Positions 14,351-63,361 of a stretch of 64,000 nt of DNA are shown one piece after another. The notes under the pieces were generated by a model. That model was not told where the DNA came from, searched no databases, and worked only from the letters and a program-made list of their open reading frames with translations. The translations under genes were made by a program, and so were the position numbers. Source of the DNA: Candidatus Collierbacteria bacterium GW2011_GWA2_42_17 (GTDB lineage: Bacteria; Patescibacteriota; Microgenomatia; UBA1400; MFAQ01); contig LCDA01000002.1 of assembly GCA_000998275.1 (NCBI GenBank), forward strand, positions 46,708-110,707, in the 5' to 3' direction. Position 1 is the stretch's first letter. Every line of letters begins with the position of its first letter.

Positions 14351-15433
14351 TTATTTTACAAACAGCTTGATTACATCCTTCACGGTAATCAAAACCATCA
14401 ATCCCAAAAGAAAAATCATTCCTCCTGTATTCACATACCCCTCAATCATATTTTTTTTCTTTTTACCGATTATCTTTTCTACTCCCAAGAAAGCCACCCT
14501 GCCTCCGTCTAAGGCCGGAAAAGGCATTACATTCAGAATAGCAAGGTTGATGGAAAGTATTCCCATAAACTGTAACACAGCTACCCAACCCACTCTATAA
14601 ACTTCTTTACTCACCTGATAAATTCCTACGGGACCGGAAACATCCTTGGGTAGTCCTTTGCCGGTAATCAAATTAACTACAATCATTTTCAGGTTACCGG
14701 CAATTTCTTTCCCCCACCCCCACGCTTCTGAAAGCCCTACCACCACTCCTCTAAAAGGCATCTGCCAAAGCGGATACTTTTTCATCTCCACACTCGACAA
14801 AGCCACTCCCAGAGCTCCCTGTCCTTCCGGAGGACTCACTCGAGGAGTTATCTTCACGGTTTTTTCTACTCCACTTTTATCCTCCAAAACAATTTCCACT
14901 TCTTTTCCCTTCAAACTATCGATTTGTTTTACAAATTCATCAATCCCCACAAACGACACCTCCTTTTTTCCAGAAACAATTTTCTTCACCAGACTGTCTA
15001 CCTCAACTCCAGCAATCGCGGCCGGAGAGTCTTTAGCCACCTCCACAATGATAACCTTGTCGGTTTTTGTGGGAATTCCTAAATATGAATAGACAATACC
15101 AAAAACAACAACTCCTAAAATAAAATTCATCATCACTCCGGACAACAACACAGCCGCCCTTTGCCACATCGGTTTGTTAAAAAACGCCTCCGGAGAAGTA
15201 GCTTGTTCTGGATTTTCCATATCCTCGCCATAAAGTTTCACAAAACCTCCCAAAGGCAACCAGTTCAGACTAAACAATATCCCTCTATGTTTAAACAAAC
15301 TTTTGGCCCTTGGAGGCAATCCTATACCAAACTCCTCTACTCTCATCTTAAAAAGACGTGCCATCAAAAAGTGACCCATCTCATGAATCAAGATTAAAAC
15401 CGACAACATTAATATAAAAACGATAAGTTGCAT
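14351..15433 (-). CDS. rseP: RIP zinc metalloprotease RseP (site-2 protease, M50 family, with PDZ)
   Basis: HEMGHFLMAR zinc motif at the N-terminus, several TM helices, a central PDZ domain and a C-terminal LDGG motif. 360 aa. Confidence 0.88.
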   Translation of the reverse strand: MQLIVFILMLSVLILIHEMGHFLMARLFKMRVEEFGIGLPPRAKSLFKHRGILFSLNWLPLGGFVKLYGEDMENPEQATSPEAFFNKPMWQRAAVLLSGVMMNFILGVVVFGIVYSYLGIPTKTDKVIIVEVAKDSPAAIAGVEVDSLVKKIVSGKKEVSFVGIDEFVKQIDSLKGKEVEIVLEDKSGVEKTVKITPRVSPPEGQGALGVALSSVEMKKYPLWQMPFRGVVVGLSEAWGWGKEIAGNLKMIVVNLITGKGLPKDVSGPVGIYQVSKEVYRVGWVAVLQFMGILSINLAILNVMPFPALDGGRVAFLGVEKIIGKKKKNMIEGYVNTGGMIFLLGLMVLITVKDVIKLFVK

Positions 15434-41953: not shown

Positions 41954-44900
41954 TTACAAATTTCCACTTTCACTAGCCGTCTCCGTCGGCGTTATTACTA
42001 CCACTGGCGTTGGCGTAGGCGTCTCTGTTGGACTTGGGGTTGAGCTCAACTCAGTTGTAGGAGTTGGCGTTATGGTAGTTTCCAGTATTGGAGTTGGTTC
42101 AGGTGTTACCGTTTCACTTGGCAGGTCAACAACTCCCCCACTTCCTTCAAACTTGCCTGTTTCATTTACTGCTAGAGCAACCCAGGCAAATCGTAAATCC
42201 ATGCCGACTCCTCTACTCAAACGAATCTTAAAGCCTCTGGTATTTACATCGGCAATAGCATAACCGGGAATGTCGGCAACCGAAGCACCTCCTACAATTT
42301 GCACCGTGGCAGTTACCACTGGTTCGTCTTTATATTCTCTCTCAAACAAAATCTCCACTTGGCTGCCTCCAGTTTTAATCGTGGCAAAACCTGCTGTGTC
42401 TTTATTAAACGTTGGCCTTCCGACAAAGTTTACCTCTCCTCTAAAGATCACTTTGCCCAAAAACTCTACTGTGTTCCTAAACACCTCAGCTATTTTCTTG
42501 GAAATTAGGTCTAATATATCAATCTCACTCGAAGTATCACTTTGTATTTCACCGGCAGCCGTGGCCACTCCTGCTACCCGATCACTCAACAGACTCAGTT
42601 TCCTGGTCAAGATATCCACTCCTTCGATCCTCCCGGCCTTTATCGTATCTGCGTAAAGTATTCCTGAAAAAGTGGCGTCACCCGACACTAGTAGGTCCTG
42701 TGTCACCACTTTTGGAGTTATTATTTCCAGTCCGGCAACCACTCTGTCAGCTATTATGTCGGACATGTTTGCCGAGTCAGTCGCAACTTGATTTTTTTCC
42801 ATAATCAGATTAGTCAGCACCTCATAACCATTAGCTACATCAATTCCCTTCATCACTTCAGTAAGATTACTTCCGGTACTGTTACCATTCTTCACAAAAA
42901 CAATTACGACTCCAACTCCTTCTCCGTCATATCCGGTCATCGCCGTCCCAATTATTGCTCCGGCCTTTGTTGCTCTCATCGCCACCCCAGGAATGGATGA
43001 AGAAGTCAGATAATCTCCGGCCTTGATTTCCCCATTTTCCGCCGACACTTTTACTGGCACCCTTCCCGAAAGAGCTACCAGTACCGGAGTTCCCGATACA
43101 TTTCCGTCACCAAGCACCATTCCCGGTTTTGTCGATACTATTCCCAGTACTGTGGAATCATAAGTCTTTCTGGATTTCTGGACGCCATTCTGAATTGAAC
43201 TGTCAACAGAAACGACGTCTCCTTCAGCTATTGAGCCATCATTCGATGAATACACTTCCGCCAAATCAGCCCCGCCGACCTTGAAAGCTTCCAAGAAGCT
43301 ACCTGCTTTAACCGTCACGTTCGTTCCCACCCCTGCCGTATTTTCGGCAAACTGAAAATTGAAGGTCCCTGCCGTTGCTCCGGTAGTGATAATTCCCTGA
43401 ATCCAGACATCAAAACCTTGACCTGCATCTGAAGCAATATTGTTATTAACCATCTCGGCTGGGGTTGTACAGTCTGTAGTTAATGCTTGTAGAAATACAG
43501 CTCCTACTGACTCAGATCCCGACTGCTGAACACTACAAGTGGTAGCTGCAGGACCAAGAATCGCTGCTTTCCAATCCGGCCCGTTACTGCTTCCGTTAGT
43601 TACAATCAGATGCAGTCTGAACACCCAAGATTCACTGGCCGCCATTGAAAACTGTAAAGCTGTATCATTGGTCAGGGTGGTACTATTGGTCACCGCCTGG
43701 TCAGTAGATTTAGTAATAAACAACTTATCTCCCCCAATACAGTTTGTCCAAGCACCGTTTTGGTAACATCTGAATTTATTAGTACTAGTGTTGTAATAGG
43801 TAGCCCCGTTTGTTCCGATTGGATCGGCCGTTCCGTTATCCAGCACCAACAAATCTGGTGTCGCCGTGGCGCTGTTTCCGATTACTACCCTTCCTGTCGA
43901 CGATGTTGGACCAACCATAAAGTTCACATTTCCAGTTCCGGAATATAAGTTTAAAGCCGTTGCACCAGTTGTATTACCCATCGTTATCGTCTTTGCATTG
44001 GCATTGGTACCAATATTAATTGCTCCGGTTGTTCCCGAGTCGAGTGTCACTGTTCCTGTTGTTCCGGTTGTAAAGGACAGATTTCCGGAAGTACCGGTTA
44101 GTAAAGTAATTCCTCCCGTACCGGAGTTGATGTTGACCGAAGTAGACGTATTAGTATTTCCTAAGGTAATCGCTTTTGCCGAAGCTCCGGTTCCAATATT
44201 TAGAGACATCGCCCCGGTCCCTGTAAATAAATTTGCCGTCCCCGTTTGGGCAGTTCCTCCCATCGTAAAGGTTCCATTCGTCGTCGAAGTTCCGAAAGAA
44301 TACGTTGTTGCCCCTGCTCCATCCAAAATAAAGTTCCCCGTACCCGCATACATATTTAGGGCACCCGTTCCCGTCGCACTACCAATCGTAATTGTTTTTC
44401 CGGTCGCGCTATTACCGATGTTTATCGCCCCGACACCGGAATCGATATTAATCGCCTGAGCCAGTGTCGCGTTTCCAATAGTCACTCCACCAGCCGCCGT
44501 TGTATCAATTATCGGAAATGACCTGGCAAAAATACCCAAAGGTGCCGCCGTCGATGACGGTAATGTCCGAGCATTCAAAATATACTGTGATCCCGCACCA
44601 TTTATTGCCGCCGTCGTCTCCCCAAAAGTAAACGCTGTTTTTACGGCTGTTGTCAAAGCAAAGTTCCAAGCCTGTGCATTGTCGCCATTAGCAATGGTAC
44701 TTCCACCTAAAGCAGCCGAAATTGAATCGAGACTGGTACCACTTGCACTACAAGCCCACGCCGTCCCACTATATTTAAGAATCTCTCCCGATGAACAAGT
44801 TCGAAGTAATGACAAACCGGTACTATTTACTAACCCACCGCCGGTACTTAGTTGAACTGCCGAACCCGATACTTTATTTGCCGTTGTGATTGTTGATAGG

Positions 44901-47275
44901 CTAGTATCAGCAATATTGGAAAGTGTATTCAAACTGGCATCTATTGTTTTATTTGTCAAAGCTATCGCAGTGTCCGTCAAAACGACTTTTGTTCCGGTTC
45001 TGATTCTTGCCACACCACCAGTTTGATCAGTAATCACAAACTCTTCGGACGAAGTTGTCGCCGGTCCGAACTGAAGCGTCGTTACTGCTCCAACCGATGG
45101 AGAACCGTCTGATTCTGCCACGGTCACGGATCCTCCGCCTGTTGAATCCGCACTACATGTCCAACCGGTAGCCGCCGTCCATTTTAGAATTTGATTATCA
45201 CTACAAGTCCTAAGTAGCGACAAACCGGAATCATTCACCAAACCACCATTGGCATTTAATGTCGGTGACCCCGATGTACTATCCGTATTACACACCCAAG
45301 ACGTTCCATTGTATTTAAGGATCTCTCCTGATGCGCAGGTTCTGAGCAAAGACAAGCCAGTACTATCTACTAACCCACCGCCGGTACTTAGTTGAACTGC
45401 TGAACCCGATACTTTATTTGCCGTTGTGATTGTTGCCAAATTGGCATCGGTTATTCCCGCAGTCCCGGATAAATTTGAGTTCGTAAGTCCGGAAATAGTA
45501 TTGGCTCCGGCGGCAATCGTTTTATTTGTTAACGTCCCTGACTCATTCAGAAATACAAAGGTGTCATTCCCCGACAAAGCCGGAATCGTCGCTGTTCTAC
45601 TGGCACTTGGTGCTGTAGAGGAAATCGTTGTCGTATTGGTTGTTCCCAATACCAGCTGATTATTTACCTTGGTCAGTGTAAGTGAATTAAACGTTGGTGT
45701 CGCTGTTGAATCGATATTTTGGATCGTATTCACCGACCCACTAACTACACTAAAGTTTGTTGAGTTATAGTTTGCTACTCCTTTTAATGTTGTTGAGGCG
45801 TCCACTCCGGCAATTGTTACTGTTCCTCCAAGAGATACCGGTGAACCGCTCACCGAAATTCCACTCCCCGGAGAGACAAAGATACTACTGTTGGATAGCT
45901 GGCCATTGGTAATACCCGCAGAGGCCGCTAGATTAGCCGAGGTTAATCCTGAAATAGCTGTGTTCGTTACTCCACTCACTCTCCCGTTTGCGTCGGTCGT
46001 CAACACCGGAATGTCTGTCGCTGTGCCGTAGGTTCCGGCTGTTCCCACGCTGGGTAACACTCCCGCAATATTTATCGTTGTCCCGGACGCAGTTACCGTA
46101 TTTAATCCGCTGCCGGTAATCGTAAGACCCCCGGTTAAACTATTTATACTTGATACTCCCGTCCCCACCCCACTTACCGACTGACACTCCCATGAATCTC
46201 CATCCCAACTCAACACCTGGTCTATCGAACAGCCCGTCAAAAGACTCAAACCCGAGTCATTTGTTAACCCCCCTCCGCCTCTCAACGATACTGCGGCTCC
46301 GGATACTTTATTTGCCTCGGTAATTTGAGCCAGTTTTGCATTAGTTATCTCTCCATCACCAATTTTTCCCGACGTAATTGTCCCATCTGTTATTTTGGCT
46401 CCAGTCACAGCGGAATCAGCCAGTTTGATGGTCGTCACCGCCCCGTCAGCCAACTTCAGAGTTGTTATCGAACCATTTACAATCTGGGCATCACCAACCA
46501 CCCCACTATTGATTATGGCCAATCCGGTCACTGGATCTATCGTAATGGCTCCGGAAACTACCGATGGTGTAGGGGATATTTCTGCCCCTGGAAGAATCAC
46601 CGTCACGGTTTCTTGAGCTTGATCTAACCATTTAAAAACCTCTTTTCCAACAGCTGCAGTAGCTATATCCACCTCCTGCAAAGACGGTGTAATGCTTATA
46701 TTTTCAAAATTACCTCGAGTATCTATCGTACCCAAAATTTGGGAATTATCTTTTAGACTTCGCAGATCCACGTCCCCAACCATCTTACCGCCGTTTATTC
46801 TGCCGTTAATTATTTTTACGGGGAGCGTTGTTCCGTCGGTCAGTGTTATACCAACCACTCCGTGTAACACAATCATGGCGTTCTCTATTACTCGATTATC
46901 GTCATCATAGATATTTACCGTCCCCTTTATTTCCTGGGTCAGTTTTGCCTCACCATTTTGATAAACAAGTTCTGTAAGATCAACGTATTTTTCATTTTGA
47001 ATCTGTGCGTTTTGAACTTTTACAAATGCGTACTCTCCGTTGGTTCGTGCTATTACCAAATATGGCTGATTGCCCAAATTGCTCTCTGACAATACCTCCG
47101 GAGTTACTTCCGAAACAGCCTGAATTGTCACTTGTTTTTCAACAACAGCAGGCTTGATCTTGCCGCCACTAATTGCAAAAACAACCCCTCCCCCAGTAAT
47201 CACAAAAAACAGAATCAAGATAAAACGCACTACCTGATCATATTTATTTCCAGTAATTAGCTGAGAACCTTCCAT
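41954..47275 (-). CDS. Giant (1773 aa) N-terminally anchored repetitive surface protein, tail-fibre/adhesin-like
   Basis: N-terminal TM. Short (I/L)TxxKLADGAVT-type repeats. Four copies of a module ANKVSGSAVQL.TGGGLVxSTGLSLLRTC...ILK(Y/W)...W.C with a conserved Cys pair. Long G/T/S/N-rich beta-like tracts. A C-terminal PT-rich linker. The start codon abuts the stop of the upstream gene. Confidence 0.8.
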   Translation of the reverse strand: MEGSQLITGNKYDQVVRFILILFFVITGGGVVFAISGGKIKPAVVEKQVTIQAVSEVTPEVLSESNLGNQPYLVIARTNGEYAFVKVQNAQIQNEKYVDLTELVYQNGEAKLTQEIKGTVNIYDDDNRVIENAMIVLHGVVGITLTDGTTLPVKIINGRINGGKMVGDVDLRSLKDNSQILGTIDTRGNFENISITPSLQEVDIATAAVGKEVFKWLDQAQETVTVILPGAEISPTPSVVSGAITIDPVTGLAIINSGVVGDAQIVNGSITTLKLADGAVTTIKLADSAVTGAKITDGTITSGKIGDGEITNAKLAQITEANKVSGAAVSLRGGGGLTNDSGLSLLTGCSIDQVLSWDGDSWECQSVSGVGTGVSSINSLTGGLTITGSGLNTVTASGTTINIAGVLPSVGTAGTYGTATDIPVLTTDANGRVSGVTNTAISGLTSANLAASAGITNGQLSNSSIFVSPGSGISVSGSPVSLGGTVTIAGVDASTTLKGVANYNSTNFSVVSGSVNTIQNIDSTATPTFNSLTLTKVNNQLVLGTTNTTTISSTAPSASRTATIPALSGNDTFVFLNESGTLTNKTIAAGANTISGLTNSNLSGTAGITDANLATITTANKVSGSAVQLSTGGGLVDSTGLSLLRTCASGEILKYNGTSWVCNTDSTSGSPTLNANGGLVNDSGLSLLRTCSDNQILKWTAATGWTCSADSTGGGSVTVAESDGSPSVGAVTTLQFGPATTSSEEFVITDQTGGVARIRTGTKVVLTDTAIALTNKTIDASLNTLSNIADTSLSTITTANKVSGSAVQLSTGGGLVNSTGLSLLRTCSSGEILKYSGTAWACSASGTSLDSISAALGGSTIANGDNAQAWNFALTTAVKTAFTFGETTAAINGAGSQYILNARTLPSSTAAPLGIFARSFPIIDTTAAGGVTIGNATLAQAINIDSGVGAINIGNSATGKTITIGSATGTGALNMYAGTGNFILDGAGATTYSFGTSTTNGTFTMGGTAQTGTANLFTGTGAMSLNIGTGASAKAITLGNTNTSTSVNINSGTGGITLLTGTSGNLSFTTGTTGTVTLDSGTTGAINIGTNANAKTITMGNTTGATALNLYSGTGNVNFMVGPTSSTGRVVIGNSATATPDLLVLDNGTADPIGTNGATYYNTSTNKFRCYQNGAWTNCIGGDKLFITKSTDQAVTNSTTLTNDTALQFSMAASESWVFRLHLIVTNGSSNGPDWKAAILGPAATTCSVQQSGSESVGAVFLQALTTDCTTPAEMVNNNIASDAGQGFDVWIQGIITTGATAGTFNFQFAENTAGVGTNVTVKAGSFLEAFKVGGADLAEVYSSNDGSIAEGDVVSVDSSIQNGVQKSRKTYDSTVLGIVSTKPGMVLGDGNVSGTPVLVALSGRVPVKVSAENGEIKAGDYLTSSSIPGVAMRATKAGAIIGTAMTGYDGEGVGVVIVFVKNGNSTGSNLTEVMKGIDVANGYEVLTNLIMEKNQVATDSANMSDIIADRVVAGLEIITPKVVTQDLLVSGDATFSGILYADTIKAGRIEGVDILTRKLSLLSDRVAGVATAAGEIQSDTSSEIDILDLISKKIAEVFRNTVEFLGKVIFRGEVNFVGRPTFNKDTAGFATIKTGGSQVEILFEREYKDEPVVTATVQIVGGASVADIPGYAIADVNTRGFKIRLSRGVGMDLRFAWVALAVNETGKFEGSGGVVDLPSETVTPEPTPILETTITPTPTTELSSTPSPTETPTPTPVVVITPTETASESGNL
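44767..45436. repeat. Two near-identical (2-3 mismatches) intragenic direct repeats of about 130 bp, 540 bp apart, inside the giant gene
   Basis: 44767..44896 against 45307..45436, compared by eye. They correspond to module copies 2 and 4. More diverged copies lie at about 45180-45260 and 46180-46330. Confidence 0.85.
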
Positions 47276-47277
47276 TT

Positions 47278-49263
47278 CTATTTTTCCCCCATCCTTCTCG
47301 TGGTCTTAATAAAAATAATAGAGGTCAGCATCACAATCCCTATGATTAGAAATAATATAAGCAACCAAGTTAACCACGATAGGTTCACATCAAGCACTTT
47401 TTGAACCGGCTCGGAAACAATAACCGTCAATCCATACTTCGAAAGCTTACTTGATCCGAATAAGGAATGTAGTCCTCTCCAGTTATATCCCTCCATATTT
47501 ACCGCGTTTGTTTTCCATAGATCGTAACTACCGTCAGCCTCATTCACCACTACCCCCAGTCTGTCGGCATTAGGGTGTACTACCATTTTTCCTCCCTCCC
47601 CAACCACAACGACTTCCTGTCCCAATGTACTATCACCTACCCTCTGGAGTTCACTTGATAGATTTACTCCTGAAACAGCCACAAATAAAACACCCGATAC
47701 CACATTTTTTGTGTTGACTGTCGGAACGGCAATCAAGAAAACGTCATCAACTCCCTCAATTAAATTTTCTAAGGCCATCGAAACATATGTTTTCCCAGTG
47801 TTTAGTGTTGAGTTAAAAAACTCAGCACCTGCAAAACTAGACGAGTTAAACATTGCCGAGGTTGGATAAGAGGCGATCGGTTCCCCATCTGCCTCAATTA
47901 CACCAGCGATAGCCACATCGGTTCTTCCTAAAGATAAAAACTTCAACTGGTCTGCAAGCTCTTTACTTTGCGAACGAACAAAGGCCTTAATAAACACTTC
48001 ATTCTTTGATAAATCAGTCACTCCTTGTGTCAAACCATCGATGGTTCTTGATAACTCCACCCTGGCAAAATCGGCCTTTTCAGAAAGTCCTCGGTTTGCA
48101 TTACTGATTAAAGTTCCCTGAACCACAGCAATCATCAAAATCACCAATATGAAGCACATGAGAACTGAACCAAAAACTTTAAACACCAAGGTGCGCTCTG
48201 AAACCAACCTGGCCTTAAACGAGTCCCAGGATGGCAAAACCATACCTATTAAACCTGCGATTAGAGTCGCAAAGAACCTTGACCAATAATTCTCTATACC
48301 GTAATAGAGTGCCAAACTACAAAGTATCAATCCATAAGCAAACGAAATACTCTTCAGAAATCTCTTGTTCCAAAAAAATCCATAAAGACCGAAGGCAATC
48401 AGTACCAATATTAACAGGCTTAAAAGCCATCCTAAACCACCAAATACCGACTTTAATCCCAAAGTTACTACTGACAGGTCTGAGCCGTCAGGAAAAAAGT
48501 TTAAAGCAATAAACACACTAATTAGTAATCCAAAAATATATAGCATATACAAAGTTGAAGACTCAACTTCGCTCAAAGCCTCAATCAAAATCACCAAACC
48601 AAACAAGCCGTGAATCAAAAAACCGTCAATGTCTCCTCCTGAAAACAAAACTACCGCTAACCCCAAAAAGGTAGCCCCCAAAAAATATCGGAAAATATTT
48701 GTCAGGTTCACTGTACGTCCAACCTCTTCTTGAATCATCGAAGCTAGAATCAAACCAAACCCTCCAAATATCATTCCCAAACGAACTGGATTTAACCAAA
48801 GAGACAGTCTTCCTAGGGATAAAACATCCTGTTGGTTAGAGTACAAAAACAGAGACATTCCCAAAACAATAGATGTCAGGCTTATTAACCAGTCAAACAG
48901 CGTCGGAAATCCTACTCTTTCCACCAACCACAGTCTCATCGTATGCAAAAAAGACTCTCCACTCAGATCCGACAGACTTTTTCCTGGTCTCGGTGTTGGT
49001 AATAATGCGCTAGGTAATACATCTTGTTGTGATAATATCGCTACTCCTTCTTTTTTACTCGTGGTAGGTTTTTCTTTGGACTCGATTATTTCTCCTTCAC
49101 CCTTGTTGCCTTCAAACTTCTTAATTTCCAGCTCTGGAATTCTAAATTTTCCCTTACCGATTCTGACGGAATTTATCAAACCCTCTTTCAAAAAACCATA
49201 GATGCTATTTGTTGAGTAACCAAGAATCTTGGCGGTCTCTGAAACCGAGTATGTTTTCTTCAT
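47278..49263 (-). CDS. Membrane protein with an N-terminal excisionase/MerR-like HTH, about 10 TM helices, a C-terminal extracytoplasmic Cache-like domain and a final TM (661 aa)
   Basis: N-terminus MKKTYSVSETAKILGYSTNSIYGFLKEGLINSVRIGKGKFRIP (HTH_17-like). A long hydrophobic core. The C-terminal soluble region resembles a Cache/sensor domain, followed by WLTWLLILFLIIGIVMLTSIIFI. Confidence 0.65.
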   Translation of the reverse strand: MKKTYSVSETAKILGYSTNSIYGFLKEGLINSVRIGKGKFRIPELEIKKFEGNKGEGEIIESKEKPTTSKKEGVAILSQQDVLPSALLPTPRPGKSLSDLSGESFLHTMRLWLVERVGFPTLFDWLISLTSIVLGMSLFLYSNQQDVLSLGRLSLWLNPVRLGMIFGGFGLILASMIQEEVGRTVNLTNIFRYFLGATFLGLAVVLFSGGDIDGFLIHGLFGLVILIEALSEVESSTLYMLYIFGLLISVFIALNFFPDGSDLSVVTLGLKSVFGGLGWLLSLLILVLIAFGLYGFFWNKRFLKSISFAYGLILCSLALYYGIENYWSRFFATLIAGLIGMVLPSWDSFKARLVSERTLVFKVFGSVLMCFILVILMIAVVQGTLISNANRGLSEKADFARVELSRTIDGLTQGVTDLSKNEVFIKAFVRSQSKELADQLKFLSLGRTDVAIAGVIEADGEPIASYPTSAMFNSSSFAGAEFFNSTLNTGKTYVSMALENLIEGVDDVFLIAVPTVNTKNVVSGVLFVAVSGVNLSSELQRVGDSTLGQEVVVVGEGGKMVVHPNADRLGVVVNEADGSYDLWKTNAVNMEGYNWRGLHSLFGSSKLSKYGLTVIVSEPVQKVLDVNLSWLTWLLILFLIIGIVMLTSIIFIKTTRRMGEK

Positions 49264-53470: not shown

Positions 53471-54715
53471 TCAAAGCTCCGTCATCCCCAACGCCTCCGG
53501 TATACGCACGTTTTTCGGTACCACCACAAACATTAATCTTTTTTCATAAACATACTTTTTGCTGCCATCTGGCAGCTTATCTACCCTGTCATCCCACCAA
53601 CGATTCAAGAACTGCTGAATCATATAAACTCGATCTTCCGCGTGATAATGACCGTATGGGTCCATCATTCGGATACTATCGTTTGCCCTATCCACATCCG
53701 TAACCACGCAGTAATGTCCGCTGTCACCTTTGCACATTTCCTCTTCATCTTCCATCTCTTCCCCTTCCTCGTCCGGATAGTCCTCATACGAATCACTCCC
53801 AAAAATTCCCTGCCAATCAACACCCACCGGATAGTTGTAAACACGTACCATCTGCTCGATGTCAAACAGGCTGGCATCTCGTTTCGCCCAAAGACGCATC
53901 CCGGGATAAGAATTTTTCACTGCCGTGGCCAAGAGCTCGATCGACATCCCGTTTTTTAAGGCTAATTCTCTTGTCGTTGCCGACTCGACCAGCTTATCCT
54001 GACTGGTCTCAATACCGTAATGCGACAACAAGATTTGCAAAGTAGCTGGACCACAAAAAGCCGGGTTCTCTTGACGAACTCTCGGTAAACTATCGATTGT
54101 CATTTTTTTCTCCAGCACCTCTTCCACTACCACTTCCTTGTCCATTACCAGATCTCTCTCCCACAAACCGTTATTTTCCAAATCAAAACCTCTAATCATC
54201 TTGAATCCTGCCTTCTCGGCCACCTTGATTGAGGGAATATTTCCGCTTTCAATCTCCGCCAACACTTTCAAACCATCCATCATCCACGGTTTCTTCTCCT
54301 GGAGGTATTCAAATACTAGCTTGCAACCAATTTCTATTGCTGGAGTAATCAAACCAGCCGGTGCTCCAGGACGCTTAGCATAGCTCATTTCCAACCTCCC
54401 CTGAACTATCTTTGATGGATAAAAATAAATAAAGCCGTGAACCCGACGATTAGCCACCTCTTCCGGCAAGTCGGCAATGGCAAACAAAAATGTATTTCCC
54501 TCACCTTTTTCGTCCATCCACTTTTGGTAATTCCAAATATTCAGGTTATCGACATTGTCCATCCATCTTTGCACCTCGGAACTCTCCACTATCTGGATCA
54601 GATCCCGCAAGTCACGACTGTCTTCACACTCAAAAAAGCGGACTACATAACCCTTTCCATCCTTCATAAAATACTTTTTGTCGCGATTCTCCATAACCCT
54701 GATTTTACCAAACAA
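53471..54715 (-). CDS. Fusion protein: an N-terminal GNAT-like domain plus a C-terminal papain-like C39_2-type peptidase domain (414 aa)
   Basis: The N-terminal about 200 aa are paralogous to 55911..56591 (GNAT-like). The C-terminus carries NPAFCGPATLQILLSHYG (a C39-like catalytic Cys context) and DSGHYCVV (candidate His), then an acidic linker. Confidence 0.55.
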   Translation of the reverse strand: MFGKIRVMENRDKKYFMKDGKGYVVRFFECEDSRDLRDLIQIVESSEVQRWMDNVDNLNIWNYQKWMDEKGEGNTFLFAIADLPEEVANRRVHGFIYFYPSKIVQGRLEMSYAKRPGAPAGLITPAIEIGCKLVFEYLQEKKPWMMDGLKVLAEIESGNIPSIKVAEKAGFKMIRGFDLENNGLWERDLVMDKEVVVEEVLEKKMTIDSLPRVRQENPAFCGPATLQILLSHYGIETSQDKLVESATTRELALKNGMSIELLATAVKNSYPGMRLWAKRDASLFDIEQMVRVYNYPVGVDWQGIFGSDSYEDYPDEEGEEMEDEEEMCKGDSGHYCVVTDVDRANDSIRMMDPYGHYHAEDRVYMIQQFLNRWWDDRVDKLPDGSKKYVYEKRLMFVVVPKNVRIPEALGMTEL

Positions 54716-60203: not shown

Positions 60204-60407
60204 ATGTTAAAATACCTTGATATGCCTCGTCCACTTGAATATATACGCTCGATAAGACTAGAAATGAAGCAGGTAAAATGGCCGTCTCACCAGACTGCCT
60301 TAAAGATGACCATCCTCGTCATCATTACTAGTCTAGCTGTAGCGTTTTACTCAGGAGGACTGGACTATCTCTTTACGACCATGCTTGCCAAAGCACTAAA
60401 TCGCTAA
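60204..60407 (+). CDS. secE: Preprotein translocase subunit SecE
   Basis: 67 aa with a single C-terminal TM, immediately upstream of nusG. Confidence 0.85.
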   Translation: MLKYLDMPRPLEYIRSIRLEMKQVKWPSHQTALKMTILVIITSLAVAFYSGGLDYLFTTMLAKALNR

Positions 60408-60408
60408 A

Positions 60409-61026
60409 ATGAAACTAAAAGAAGACAAAGCCAAACAAATTGATGAACTTGTGCCCAAAACACAGGATCCTAATCACGTCGTCATTACCGACAACGCCCC
60501 TCCCTCCGCCAAGTGGTACGTCGTTCACACCCAATCTGGTCACGAAAACCGTGTTTTGATTACACTAAAAACCAGAGTAATCTCCATGGGTCTTGAGAAC
60601 TTCATCTACGAAATCCTCATTCCAACTCAAGAAAAGATCAAAATCAATAAAGGTAAGAAAACCACCATCAAAGAAAAGCTTTTCCCTGGTTATATGCTCG
60701 TTCGTATGATTGTCTCCGATGACTCCTGGCTCGCTGTCCGCACCACCCAAGGTGTTACTGGCTTCGTCGGCACCGCCGATCAACCCACCCCTCTTCCCGA
60801 AAACGAAGTTAAGGCCATCACCGCCTTTGGCCAGCAAGCTGCTCCCAAGTTCCAAGCCGCCTTCACCATGGGTGAGGCCGTCCGCATCATTGAAGGACCT
60901 TTCACCGACCTCCTCGGAACCGTCTCTGCCATCGACGACGCCAAGGGCAAGGTCACAGTCTTGGTCAGTATTTTTGGACGCGAAACTCCCGTCGAGCTCG
61001 ACTTCCTCCAAATCTCCAAGATATAA
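60409..61026 (+). CDS. nusG: Transcription termination/antitermination factor NusG
   Basis: NGN domain (WYVVHTQSGHENRV) and a KOW C-terminus (GEAVRIIEGPFTDLLGTV). 205 aa. Confidence 0.9.
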   Translation: MKLKEDKAKQIDELVPKTQDPNHVVITDNAPPSAKWYVVHTQSGHENRVLITLKTRVISMGLENFIYEILIPTQEKIKINKGKKTTIKEKLFPGYMLVRMIVSDDSWLAVRTTQGVTGFVGTADQPTPLPENEVKAITAFGQQAAPKFQAAFTMGEAVRIIEGPFTDLLGTVSAIDDAKGKVTVLVSIFGRETPVELDFLQISKI

Positions 61027-61090
61027 GGGCTTTCTTGACACTCTTTTCTCTTCCTGTCATATTTAAGGTAGTCCCCCAACGGGATGTGTC

Positions 61091-61426
61091 ATGAAAAACT
61101 TAAATAGTGAAGAAACACTCTGGGTAGTCCTTCCAATTCTTCTTGTAGTTGGTATTCTCATTGCCAGCATCATCATTCTCCCTAAAACCCAAACCGAAAC
61201 TCGCAGCAAAGCCTCTGAACCCACCGTAGTTCCAACGATCGTCGCCACCCCGACCGTAACCCCTCTATCTCCCGAACGTCCCGAAATCATCTGCTCCGCC
61301 CTGTACTCTCCGGTCTGCAGCCAAAATGGCGTTACCTATCCCAGTGAGTGTGAGGCCAACAACGCTGGTGTCACGGCCTTTACCTCAGGCGAGTGTCCCC
61401 CGACCCAAGCCGCACCACCCAAGTAA
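61091..61426 (+). CDS. Membrane-anchored Kazal-like (atypical 4-Cys) protease-inhibitor-domain protein
   Basis: N-terminal TM and a PT-rich linker. C-terminal C-x7-C-x10-C-x14-C with the Kazal hallmarks Y.PVC...G.TY...C, spacings matching Kazal C2-C3 and C3-C4. Confidence 0.6.
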   Translation: MKNLNSEETLWVVLPILLVVGILIASIIILPKTQTETRSKASEPTVVPTIVATPTVTPLSPERPEIICSALYSPVCSQNGVTYPSECEANNAGVTAFTSGECPPTQAAPPK

Positions 61427-61534
61427 TTTCTCCGTCACTCTAATTCTCTCAGCTACCAACTGAGTTTTATTTGACTTATAATCTTTTTTCAGGTATGATG
61501 TCCCTCAATCCCGCACCCTAAAAGGAGTAATCCC

Positions 61535-61870
61535 ATGTTAGATTGGTTCAAATCAAGACTAATTGTTGTTCGAATCATCTTCTTTGTCCCCATCCCCGTC
61601 ATTTTAGCAATCTGGGCCTGGGGAATTCCTGCCGTCGTAATCTCATTCATCCTAACTGTCTTTTTTGCTACCGCCGTTACGGCATTTGAATCCAAAGACA
61701 TCTTTAATATTTGGTGTTTCTGTGCCTCCACTTCCTCCATTGTGGCCTTGTACTACATTGCATCAACAAATCCGGCAGCACTTCCGGGAGCACCATACCT
61801 CGAAGGTTTCTTGTACCCTCTTTTGTATCTGATTACAGCTATTGTTCTCTTTCCAAAAATTAAAGAGTAA
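61535..61870 (+). CDS. Hypothetical polytopic membrane protein (111 aa)
   Basis: RBS aaaaggagtaatcccATG, three to four TM helices, and a terminator at 61882..61906. Confidence 0.5.
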   Translation: MLDWFKSRLIVVRIIFFVPIPVILAIWAWGIPAVVISFILTVFFATAVTAFESKDIFNIWCFCASTSSIVALYYIASTNPAALPGAPYLEGFLYPLLYLITAIVLFPKIKE

Positions 61871-62054
61871 CCTCACGCTATTATCCCGCCTTAAAGGCGG
61901 GATATTTTGCACCTTCTATGATAGAATACTTCTACCTCGGCCAGTCTGAGGGAGCTTACCAAAAGTAAAGCGAAATAGGTATCTCTACTAACTAATGCAT
62001 CAAACCTATTCAACTTTCTTTTTGTGTGGCTAATATTAAATACATAAAATAAAC

Positions 62055-62480
62055 ATGGCAAAAAAAGTCAAAGCCATCCTGAAGTTAAATCTTCCGGCTG
62101 GCTCCGCCAATCCCGCTCCTCCCGTTGGTCCTGCATTAGGTCAGCACGGTGTCAACATCATGGAGTTCATTACCCAGTACAATGCTAAAACCGCCGAAAT
62201 GCGTGGTCAGGTCATTCCTGCACTGGTTACCATTTTCGAAGACAGATCTTTCAAATTCGAGCTCAAAACCCCTCCCGTCACCGCTCTCATCAAACAAGCT
62301 CTTAATATTAAACTTGGTTCCGGCACTCCTAACAAAAACAAGGTTGGTGAAATTACTCTGGAACAAATCAAAACCATTGCCGAAAAAAAACTCGCCGACA
62401 TGAATACCAATGACATCAACTCCGCTATGGAGATGATCAAAGGTACTTGTAAATCAATGGGTATTACTATCAAAGAATAA
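62055..62480 (+). CDS. rplK: 50S ribosomal protein L11
   Basis: L11 N-terminal [21 protein letters not shown] motif. 141 aa. Confidence 0.92.
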
Positions 62481-62485
62481 CTATT

Positions 62486-63361
62486 ATGGCTAAAAAAATA
62501 ATCTGGGACAACCTATACACCGACCTACCTACACACGTCGCCGTCGCTCTTCGTACCGCTCGCTTGAAGCCGGAACAAATCATCCTCAAAGAAGATGGTG
62601 AGCTCATGGCCATCGAAGGCATCAAGGAAGAGGACCTTGACTCCATAAGAGCCATCTACAACGCCGACTCCATAGCTATTCCTACCAAGGAAGAGGTCAA
62701 AGAGGCCGAAGCCAAGGAAGAGGTCATAGAAGAAGCCAAAAAAAATGCTAGGAAGGTTGTTGCCCGCAAACGCAGCAATAAATACAAGACCATGGCTAAA
62801 GCTATTAAAAAGGATGAACTCTACTCGGTTGCCAATGCCGTCGCCATCCTGGCCAAGCTTTCCAAAGCTTCCAAGCTCAAAACCGTCGAGCTTCACCTTA
62901 ACACGCGTGAAACAGGCTTAAGAGGCGAGCTTAAACTTCCTCACTCTACCGGCAAAGATATCAAAATCGCCATTTTCTCTGATGAAGTTGCTGCTAAAAT
63001 TACCGCCAATACCATCGACTTTGACATTCTTCTCTGTACTCCTGCCGACATGCCCAAAATCGCCCGTTTTGCCAAGATTCTAGGTCCCAAGGGCCTTATG
63101 CCTAACCCCAAGTCCGGTACCGTTACCGAACACCCGGAAGAAAGAGCTAAACAACTTGCTGGAGGTGGCACTTTACCTTACAAGACCGAAGCCAAGTTTC
63201 CCATCATTCACCTCAATTTAGGCTCCATCACCCAAAAGAATGACGACTTGGTAGATAACATCAACGAAGCCATAAAAAGCATCAACGTCACGAAAATCAA
63301 ATCCGCTTATCTCTCCTGTACCCACACTCCTTCCGTCAAGCTTGCCATAAGCAATATCTAA
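62486..63361 (+). CDS. rplA: 50S ribosomal protein L1 with a charged N-terminal extension of about 80 aa
   Basis: L1 core from about residue 95 (ELYSVANAVAILAK...GPKGLMPNPKSGTV). 291 aa against a typical 230 aa. Terminator at 63388..63412. Confidence 0.88.
   Translation: MAKKIIWDNLYTDLPTHVAVALRTARLKPEQIILKEDGELMAIEGIKEEDLDSIRAIYNADSIAIPTKEEVKEAEAKEEVIEEAKKNARKVVARKRSNKYKTMAKAIKKDELYSVANAVAILAKLSKASKLKTVELHLNTRETGLRGELKLPHSTGKDIKIAIFSDEVAAKITANTIDFDILLCTPADMPKIARFAKILGPKGLMPNPKSGTVTEHPEERAKQLAGGGTLPYKTEAKFPIIHLNLGSITQKNDDLVDNINEAIKSINVTKIKSAYLSCTHTPSVKLAISNI

Follow-up and report, generated by a model that had tools for sequence, protein, structure and literature searches.

What does a Kazal-like protease-inhibitor block do between the nusG and rplK genes of a Candidatus Collierbacteria genome, and is it a Kazal domain at all? 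The question is raised by one open reading frame (ORF) in Candidatus Collierbacteria bacterium GW2011_GWA2_42_17 (contig LCDA01000002.1), within a stretch of 64,000 nucleotides (nt) that we call the window; all coordinates are window positions. A reading made from the letters of this DNA (the sequence-only reading) had described a membrane-anchored protein with a Kazal-like block, placed its gene inside a ribosomal operon, and suggested a profile search, a structure prediction, identification of the P1 residue and a survey of homologs for distribution and Cys conservation. An ORF of 111 amino acids with the quoted Cys block is indeed present at 61091-61426 (+); its full translation is MKNLNSEETLWVVLPILLVVGILIASIIILPKTQTETRSKASEPTVVPTIVATPTVTPLSPERPEIICSALYSPVCSQNGVTYPSECEANNAGVTAFTSGECPPTQAAPPK. 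In the product a hydrophobic helix at the N-terminus is followed by a Pro/Thr-rich linker and a C-terminal block of four Cys, and the gene is divided accordingly:

61091..61426, + strand: whole gene for the 111-amino-acid precursor, ATG start, TAA stop (stop included)
61091..61183, + strand: residues 1-31, invariant acidic N-terminus (N5, E7, E8, T9, L10, W11) and hydrophobic helix
61184..61279, + strand: residues 32-63, Pro/Thr/Val-rich linker including S39-K40-A41
61280..61399, + strand: residues 64-103, predicted non-classical two-disulfide Kazal domain
61400..61466, + strand: shortened C-terminal tail PPTQAAPPK and stop, then out-of-frame remnants of the ancestral tail

Identification of the Kazal domain

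Judged by profile matches and predicted fold, the C-terminal block is a genuine Kazal domain of the two-disulfide form. Both Pfam families score above their gathering thresholds: Kazal_2 (PF07648) with 28.2 bits (gathering score 22.8, E 2.1e-6) and Kazal_1 (PF00050) with 27.8 bits (gathering score 21, E 2.5e-6). The top matches of a phmmer search against all PDB sequences were solely Kazal proteins (agrin, ovomucoid, CrSPI-1, GmSPI-2, PEC-60, RECK, LDTI). The alignment to GmSPI-2 (2m5x/4hgu) extends over 37 residues, the whole domain, with the four Cys in register; its window side is IICSALYSPVCSQNGVTYPSECEANNAGVTAFTSGEC.

A word-indexed search found 45 homologs, with identities of 60-94%, which were aligned with the window protein (46 sequences). 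In the AlphaFold model (46 sequences) the C-terminal domain has a predicted local distance difference test score (pLDDT) of 88-89 and is made of strand 75-77, helix 86-91 and strand 97-99. The short antiparallel sheet, central helix and exposed reactive loop that define a Kazal fold are all seen in the predicted structure, and the predicted domain superposes on GmSPI-2 at 1.5 Å. The claim of a Kazal domain thus withstood both the HMMER comparison with the Kazal_1 and Kazal_2 profiles and the structure prediction.

The Cys block reads C68-x7-C76-x10-C87-x14-C102. Alignment with OMTKY3 and GmSPI-2 assigns C68 to C2, C76 to C3, C87 to C4 and C102 to C6 of the Kazal framework; C1 is absent, with no Cys before C2, and Asn takes the place of C5 in 45 of the 46 sequences. 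As the Cys align with OMTKY3 and GmSPI-2 positions, the disulfides are likely to be C68-C87 (C2-C4) and C76-C102 (C3-C6). The classical form with six Cys and disulfides 1-5, 2-4 and 3-6 is not seen. All 46 sequences have just four Cys, therefore the family is not classical Kazal and fits the non-classical two-disulfide subtype, with the GmSPI-2-type framework C-x7-C-x10-C-x14-C (C2, C3, C4 and C6). The alignment bore out what the sequence-only reading had said of the spacings (7 for C2-C3, 10 for C3-C4), of the missing C1 and C5 and of the two-disulfide type. It had called the form atypical; the four-Cys framework is as described, but the pattern is not new, as GmSPI-2 shares it.

Sequence features of canonical inhibitors are kept as well: Cys at P3, Ser or Thr at P2, Tyr at P2′, Asn or Ser at P15′ and a seven-residue C2-C3 loop, along with the Kazal consensus residues Pro74 and Tyr83. 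Neither the domain family nor its mechanism nor this very two-disulfide variant is new, and the NCBI pipeline already names close homologs (two of them 'Kazal-type serine protease inhibitor'). Precomputed Pfam Kazal matches exist for 42 of the 45 homologs; NCBIfam had no specific model matching the window protein.

Conservation and distribution of the family

The gene is real and under purifying selection. The pairwise ratio of non-synonymous to synonymous substitution rates (dN/dS) was 0.15 over the whole gene; residues 1-31 and the Kazal domain each gave 0.12, and the linker gave 0.31. The N-terminus (N5, E7, E8, T9, L10, W11) with the helix is as strongly conserved as the Kazal domain. The linker varies among homologs in both length and sequence, except for S39-K40-A41, which is invariant or nearly so. 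A spurious ORF was ruled out by the 45 homologs, the dN/dS range of 0.12-0.31 and the conservation of start codon and promoter.

C68, C76, C87 and C102 are invariant in the alignment, and no sequence has a further Cys. The reactive loop of the window protein is C68(P3)-S69(P2)-A70(P1)-L71(P1′)-Y72(P2′)-S73(P3′). P1′ Leu, P2′ Tyr, P3′ Ser and P4′ Pro are the same in 46/46 sequences; variation is confined to a few residue types at P2 (Ser 30/46, Thr 16/46), P1 (Ser in 40/46, Ala in four, the window copy among these, and Thr in two) and P15′ (Asn 25/46, Ser 21/46).

The distribution of the family was approached in two ways. When one genome per GTDB species was scanned, 11 loci emerged; where the names are informative they are Candidatus Collierbacteria or Microgenomates, and a few metagenome-assembled genomes among them are apparently mislabelled. 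The scan patterns were specific to this family, hence distant relatives could be missed. An exhaustive profile search, which covered 1.84 billion cluster representatives, returned 6,560 proteins at E ≤0.001. The best 150 of these 6,560 were nearly all long multi-Kazal proteins matching the domain alone; among the matches listed, only P0113, P0124 and P0187 (105-128 amino acids) matched the profile over its full length. One of them, P0124, is a Candidatus Collierbacteria protein annotated as 'hypothetical protein' (OGD73515.1). As so few representatives match end to end, the helix-linker-Kazal architecture appears to be a narrow family confined, within reach of these searches, to Candidatus Collierbacteria (Microgenomates, Candidate Phyla Radiation, CPR). 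The further checks suggested by the sequence-only reading gave these results: the four Cys hold throughout the alignment, the predicted P1 is A70 in the window copy, and the homologs belong to a single lineage as far as the searches reach.

N-terminal helix, linker and C-terminal tail

The hydrophobic N-terminal segment covers residues 10-30; in the AlphaFold model the helix extends over residues 6-32 with pLDDT of about 90, followed by a disordered region (residues 46-61, pLDDT <50) inside the Pro/Thr/Val-rich stretch at about 42-63. From sequence and model, the helix may be either a signal anchor or an unusually long signal peptide; a signal peptidase might cut at S39-K40-A41, 11 residues past the helix. 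Two other types of signal were considered and rejected. A type IV pilin-like (class III) signal would have a G-F/M-T-L-x-E motif, which is not present, and the invariant Glu residues stand at positions 7 and 8, directly before the helix; a lipoprotein or Tat signal is ruled out, as the N-terminal region has no Cys and no twin Arg. For the sister lineage Ch65, which has genes for a sortase and Sec components, a Gram-negative envelope was inferred to be absent (PMC7143001). Display of the domain at the cell surface, with a protective role there, is plausible from these sequence features.

About 40 of the 46 members have a Pro/Thr/Lys-rich tail after C6 that ends exactly at [LI]P-x-[S/T/A]-N-COOH. 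The window protein has its stop about eight residues past C6, and three-frame translation of the DNA beyond shows out-of-frame tail remnants, '..QVISPSL' and '..LILSATN*'. In the DNA alignment the window TTCTCTCAGCTACCAACTGA stands against TTCTCCCAGCTACAAACTAA of the related locus L010, the latter encoding ..LPATN*. As the out-of-frame remnants align with the ..LPATN* ends of relatives, we conclude from the DNA that the window copy has lost the family tail by frameshift. In its closest relatives (L007, L008 and P0001) the tail was lost through a different truncation, and the LPx[ST]N tail is evidently dispensable, judging by these sequences.

The tail does not have the form of an LPXTG-type sortase signal, because nothing comes after the pentapeptide; most homologs end at it and the window copy is without it. 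A canonical sortase substrate was ruled out, no hydrophobic segment and no basic tail being present after LPx[ST]N. No canonical sorting signal was found in any ORF of the window.

Genomic setting and promoter

The elements that surround the Kazal gene are:

60204-60407, + strand: secE (Pfam)
60409-61026, + strand: nusG (Pfam)
61035..61063, + strand: sigma-70-type promoter, -35 TTGACA, 17-nt spacer, extended -10 TGT-CATATT (promoter scan, 10/12 matches and TG)
61448..61474, + strand: weak terminator-like hairpin, 5-bp stem CTCAG/CTGAG, then TTTTATTTGA (terminator scan, consensus match alone)
62055-62480, + strand: rplK (Pfam)
62486-63361, + strand: rplA (Pfam)

The Kazal gene starts 64 nt past the nusG stop codon, and rplK follows about 630 nt downstream of the gene. 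In every related locus with both flanks the order is secE-nusG, Kazal gene, rplK-rplA, all on one strand. The distances vary: nusG and the Kazal gene are 64 nt to about 3 kb apart, and rplK follows the latter after about 150 nt to about 4 kb. The spacer between nusG and rplK is thus a variable island of 0.5-7.3 kb (related loci including L002, L004 and L008-L016; 61027-62054 in the window). Its contents (small membrane ORFs, helix-turn-helix (HTH)/XRE-like ORFs and others) differ from genome to genome, with the Kazal gene as the sole constant element.

The promoter in the window starts 9 nt past the nusG stop codon. A counterpart with a near-consensus -35 box and an extended -10 box (TTGACn, a 17-nt spacer and TGn-CATA(T/G)T or GATAGT) is located directly upstream of the Kazal gene in 14/14 loci, and is kept even where the upstream neighbor differs and the surrounding sequence cannot be aligned. 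Between the -10 box and the start codon there are just 7-17 nt in most loci, against 26-29 nt in the sub-lineage of the window; the leader would therefore be short or nearly absent. The terminator scan found no terminator between nusG and the Kazal gene in the window, and read-through from nusG is possible. The hairpin at 61448-61474 has no counterpart in the other loci, and Rfam showed nothing relevant around the Kazal gene.

With an own promoter, variable gaps and unrelated genes in between, the Kazal gene does not behave as a member of a ribosomal-protein/nusG operon, and the placement inside a nusG-rplK operon proposed from sequence alone has to be given up. In E. coli, too, secE-nusG and rplKA are separate transcription units. 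The position between nusG and rplK stands, as the order is kept; the argument drawn from it, constitutive high expression, fails. Given an own promoter and a variable spacer, the level of expression cannot be read from the ribosomal neighbors; it would be set by the gene's own promoter, which is apparently strong.

Some other elements of the island and its flank deserve mention. Between the Kazal gene and rplK there is another ORF of 111 amino acids (61535-61870, +), unrelated to the Kazal protein, with several hydrophobic segments; it had no Pfam or NCBIfam match and no tblastn match in the 17 related loci. A promoter-like site is located at 61471-61499, a hairpin and T-run come after its stop codon, and a weak Rfam P9-like match was seen at 61838-61905. 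This ORF has the look of an insertion, specific to the strain, that separates the Kazal gene from the rplK leader. The leader (about 61920-62054) contains a conserved segment, CTACCTCGGCCAGTCTGAGGGAGCTTACCAAAAGTAAAGCGAAATAGGTAT, which in L007, L008 and L009 comes directly after the Kazal gene; by its sequence it could be an L1-binding autoregulatory leader, though Rfam gave no match to it. Ribosomal protein L1 itself (62486-63361, +; 291 amino acids) has an N-terminal extension of roughly 100 residues, partly Glu/Lys-rich, before its Pfam L1 match, and this extension is conserved throughout the related loci.

Proposed function and its alternatives

The function that we favor, and consider rather probable from sequence, predicted fold and analogy, is that of an extracytoplasmic canonical inhibitor shielding the cell surface from foreign subtilisin-like or elastase-like proteases. 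The hydrophobic helix would enter the Sec pathway and either insert the protein into the membrane of the monoderm-type CPR cell or send it across. The flexible Pro/Thr-rich stalk would then hold the Kazal knob of 40 residues outside, away from the membrane. The domain would work by the Laskowski standard mechanism, with the loop C68-S-A-L-Y-S-P-V-C76 bound in the active site of a serine protease in a substrate-like manner; the scissile bond would lie between P1 Ala70 (Ser in most homologs) and P1′ Leu71, and cleavage would be extremely slow. Putative targets are subtilisin-, proteinase-K- or elastase-like enzymes rather than trypsin-like ones. The role would be ecotin-like, namely protection of the surface structures of a small host- or community-dependent cell from foreign proteases, and the gene would be transcribed from its own conserved promoter, outside any ribosomal-protein operon.

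The type of target is suggested by the small P1 residue and by a framework near-identical to that of GmSPI-2. Among the structure matches were crystal complexes of SGPB with OMTKY3 that carries Ala, Ser or Thr at P1 (1sgp, 1ct0, 1ct2); a small P1 is thus compatible with canonical binding. As to the origin of the target, the sister lineage Ch65 has just four secreted peptidases (C39, Do/DegQ, S41 and M50) and no subtilisin (PMC7143001), and the 64-kb window showed no active-site motif of the S1 or S8 type; for these reasons a foreign target is favored over an endogenous one. The peptidases of the window represent three of the four families of secreted peptidases reported for Ch65:

208-1419, - strand: S41 peptidase with PDZ domain
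14351-15433, - strand: M50 peptidase (S2P type)
53471-54715, - strand: fusion of GNAT and C39-like peptidase

No linked target protease was seen in the window, where the 20 largest ORFs are housekeeping genes and the S41, M50 and C39-like peptidases. The variable neighbors of the Kazal gene in the other loci are small membrane or HTH-like ORFs.

Several points weigh against a surface inhibitor of foreign proteases. The N-terminus is net negative and 1-3 Lys/Arg come after the helix, the reverse of the positive-inside rule for an N-in/C-out protein; the N-terminal region is also atypical for a Sec signal peptide. At residues 61-70, where the reactive loop begins, mean pLDDT is just 63. Kazal-like folds also serve as non-inhibitory modules (follistatin, agrin, SPARC/BM-40, OATP transporters), and such proteins are among the matches. 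The reactive loop is invariant rather than hypervariable, which would suit one conserved, possibly endogenous, partner better than an arms race. Finally, the literature search found no paper on any bacterial Kazal protein or on Kazal proteins in CPR bacteria.

The invariant loop leads to an alternative that we regard as unlikely yet worth stating: the anchored Kazal domain could regulate an endogenous envelope serine protease, restraining or docking the cell's own S1-family enzyme of Do/DegQ/HtrA type. HtrA enzymes prefer small aliphatic P1 residues. A loop so nearly invariant (P1′-P4′ the same in all sequences, P1 Ser, Ala or Thr) fits co-evolution with one partner, and a helix and acidic N-terminus as constrained as the domain itself (dN/dS 0.12) suggest a specific interaction within the membrane. 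The S41-PDZ peptidase (208-1419) is carried by the window, and in Ch65 a secreted Do/DegQ is encoded beside an S41 peptidase (PMC7143001). However, the HtrA-type motif GNSGG does not occur in the 64-kb window, and in none of the 17 related loci is a protease gene linked to the Kazal gene. Moreover, we know of no established case of canonical Kazal inhibition of HtrA-family enzymes and, to our knowledge, the Kazal-like module of human HTRA1 is not an inhibitory one.

One could also think of a Kazal-like module without inhibitory activity, a disulfide-stabilized knob that binds or adheres at the end of its stalk and makes contact with host cells or matrix; we see a small chance for this. Agrin is the top phmmer match, and RECK, follistatin, IGFBP7, complement factor I and BM-40 are significant too. 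The stalk-plus-knob layout and the conserved motif of the C-terminal tail resemble surface adhesins, and CPR cells need contact with other cells (PMC7143001). On the other hand, the closest matches to the whole domain, in structure as well as in sequence, are true inhibitors (GmSPI-2, LDTI, infestin, rhodniin, CrSPI-1). Furthermore, the canonical C2-C3 loop of seven residues is intact, with P3 Cys, P2 Thr/Ser, P2′ Tyr, Pro74, Tyr83 and P15′ Asn/Ser all kept, and the domain is without the N-terminal subdomain of the follistatin type.

We consider it very improbable that the topology is inverted, i.e. that the C-terminal 80 residues are cytoplasmic and the short acidic N-tail faces outward, with Cys that are reduced or bind a metal and a Kazal likeness without functional meaning. 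In its favor, YidC together with the membrane potential can translocate short acidic N-tails (e.g. Pf3 coat protein), and here the helix is preceded by one Lys and two invariant Glu, with up to three Lys/Arg among the 15 residues that follow. Against it, the basic residues after the helix vary among the homologs (K, R, Q, M, L or N at position 32; R, N, T, S or G at position 38), and the four invariant Cys are exactly at the Kazal C2-C4 and C3-C6 positions; the predicted fold needs those bridges, a domain of 40 residues without disulfides would be unlikely to fold, and Pro/Thr-rich linkers are typical of extracytoplasmic stalks.

Significance and wider window

Returning to the surface inhibitor, the features that the present analysis adds to a known domain are the apparent lineage restriction, the fixed site in a variable island, the own conserved extended -10 promoter, an acidic N-terminus and a helix that are unusually conserved, and the C-terminal LPx[ST]N that the window copy has lost. 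Given the very small genomes, the strong purifying selection and the retention of one site across a candidate phylum, the gene is likely to be important to the CPR way of life. If true, a protease inhibitor at the surface would rank among the few concrete pieces of molecular evidence on how CPR cells withstand a host or biofilm environment; only an unusual target or unusual sorting signals would make the gain more than incremental. A two-disulfide domain of 40 residues is easily synthesised.

One could speculate further, at long odds, that the family is the founding example of a functional bacterial Kazal inhibitor, a lineage-wide, membrane-tethered shield with which an ultra-small CPR cell attached to its host would survive the proteases of that host or of its community, and in which the N-terminus with its helix and LPx[ST]N-COOH would be new signals for sorting or attachment. 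LPx[ST]N-COOH could then be, for example, a minimal sortase-type signal on a protein already anchored at its N-terminus.

Two observations concern the wider window. The GC skew is between -0.16 and -0.36 in every 4-kb bin (window 1-64000), with an excess of C over G on the + strand that is independent of gene orientation. The skew of the window matches the one-strand asymmetry published for Candidatus Collierbacteria and their relatives, which was explained by largely unidirectional replication (PMC7143001); it is consistent with placing the sequence in this lineage. Also, an ORF of 1773 amino acids (41954-47275, -) has a hydrophobic N-terminal segment, a repeated '..GLSLLRTC..' motif and a Pro/Thr-rich C-terminus; it had no Pfam match at E ≤1e-5 and, by its sequence, is probably a giant surface protein. 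The adjoining ORF (47278-49263) has dCache and HTH domains.

Comparison with known systems

The closest known system is GmSPI-2 (Galleria mellonella silk protease inhibitor 2; PDB 4hgu, 2m5x). It is an inhibitor of 36 residues with just two bridges, Cys5-Cys24 and Cys13-Cys39, and its P1 Thr is the second residue after the first Cys; it strongly inhibits subtilisin and proteinase K, and CrSPI-1 domain 1 likewise has two bridges alone (PMC4169406). The Collierbacteria domain has the same C-x7-C-x10-C-x14-C framework without C1-C5, about 40% identity over 37 residues and, again second after the first Cys, a small P1 (Ser, Ala or Thr in the family; the Thr of GmSPI-2 is small and polar). The residues P1′-P3′ differ, E-W-D in GmSPI-2 and L-Y-S in the Collierbacteria protein. 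GmSPI-2 is a free, secreted protein of insect silk, whereas the Collierbacteria protein has a helix, a Pro/Thr linker of 30 residues and a tail that in most members ends in LPx[ST]N. Inhibition of subtilisin and proteinase K was measured for GmSPI-2, while the Collierbacteria protein is known from its sequence and predicted fold.

With the classical Kazal inhibitors (OMTKY3, SPINK1; MEROPS I1) the domain shares the C2-C3 and C3-C4 spacings of 7 and 10, the motifs Y-x-P-[VL]-C and G-x-T-Y-x-[NS]-x-C, a strand-helix-strand core and, by inference, the canonical mechanism. It differs from them in the loss of C1, C5 and the N-terminal segment that bears C1, and would have two disulfides instead of three.

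Four-Cys Kazal domains are also known from Phytophthora (EPI1a), centipede (ShSPI) and LEKTI; these are potent and stable inhibitors of subtilisin A or elastase (PMC1236909, PMC6950245), thus one Kazal disulfide is dispensable. EPI1 is, besides, a secreted microbial inhibitor aimed at a subtilase of another organism. However, EPI1a, ShSPI and the LEKTI domains are without C3 and C6 and keep C1-C5, whereas the Collierbacteria family keeps C3-C6 and is without C1-C5, i.e. the subtype is different.

Ecotin (MEROPS I11), which does not inhibit the proteases of E. coli itself and protects against exogenous ones (PMC9904509), is comparable in the proposed role alone, that of an envelope-located bacterial inhibitor of foreign serine proteases, a role that we infer for the Collierbacteria protein. 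In other respects the two are unlike: ecotin has an unrelated fold, acts as a dimer with two binding sites and is located in the periplasm of a diderm cell.

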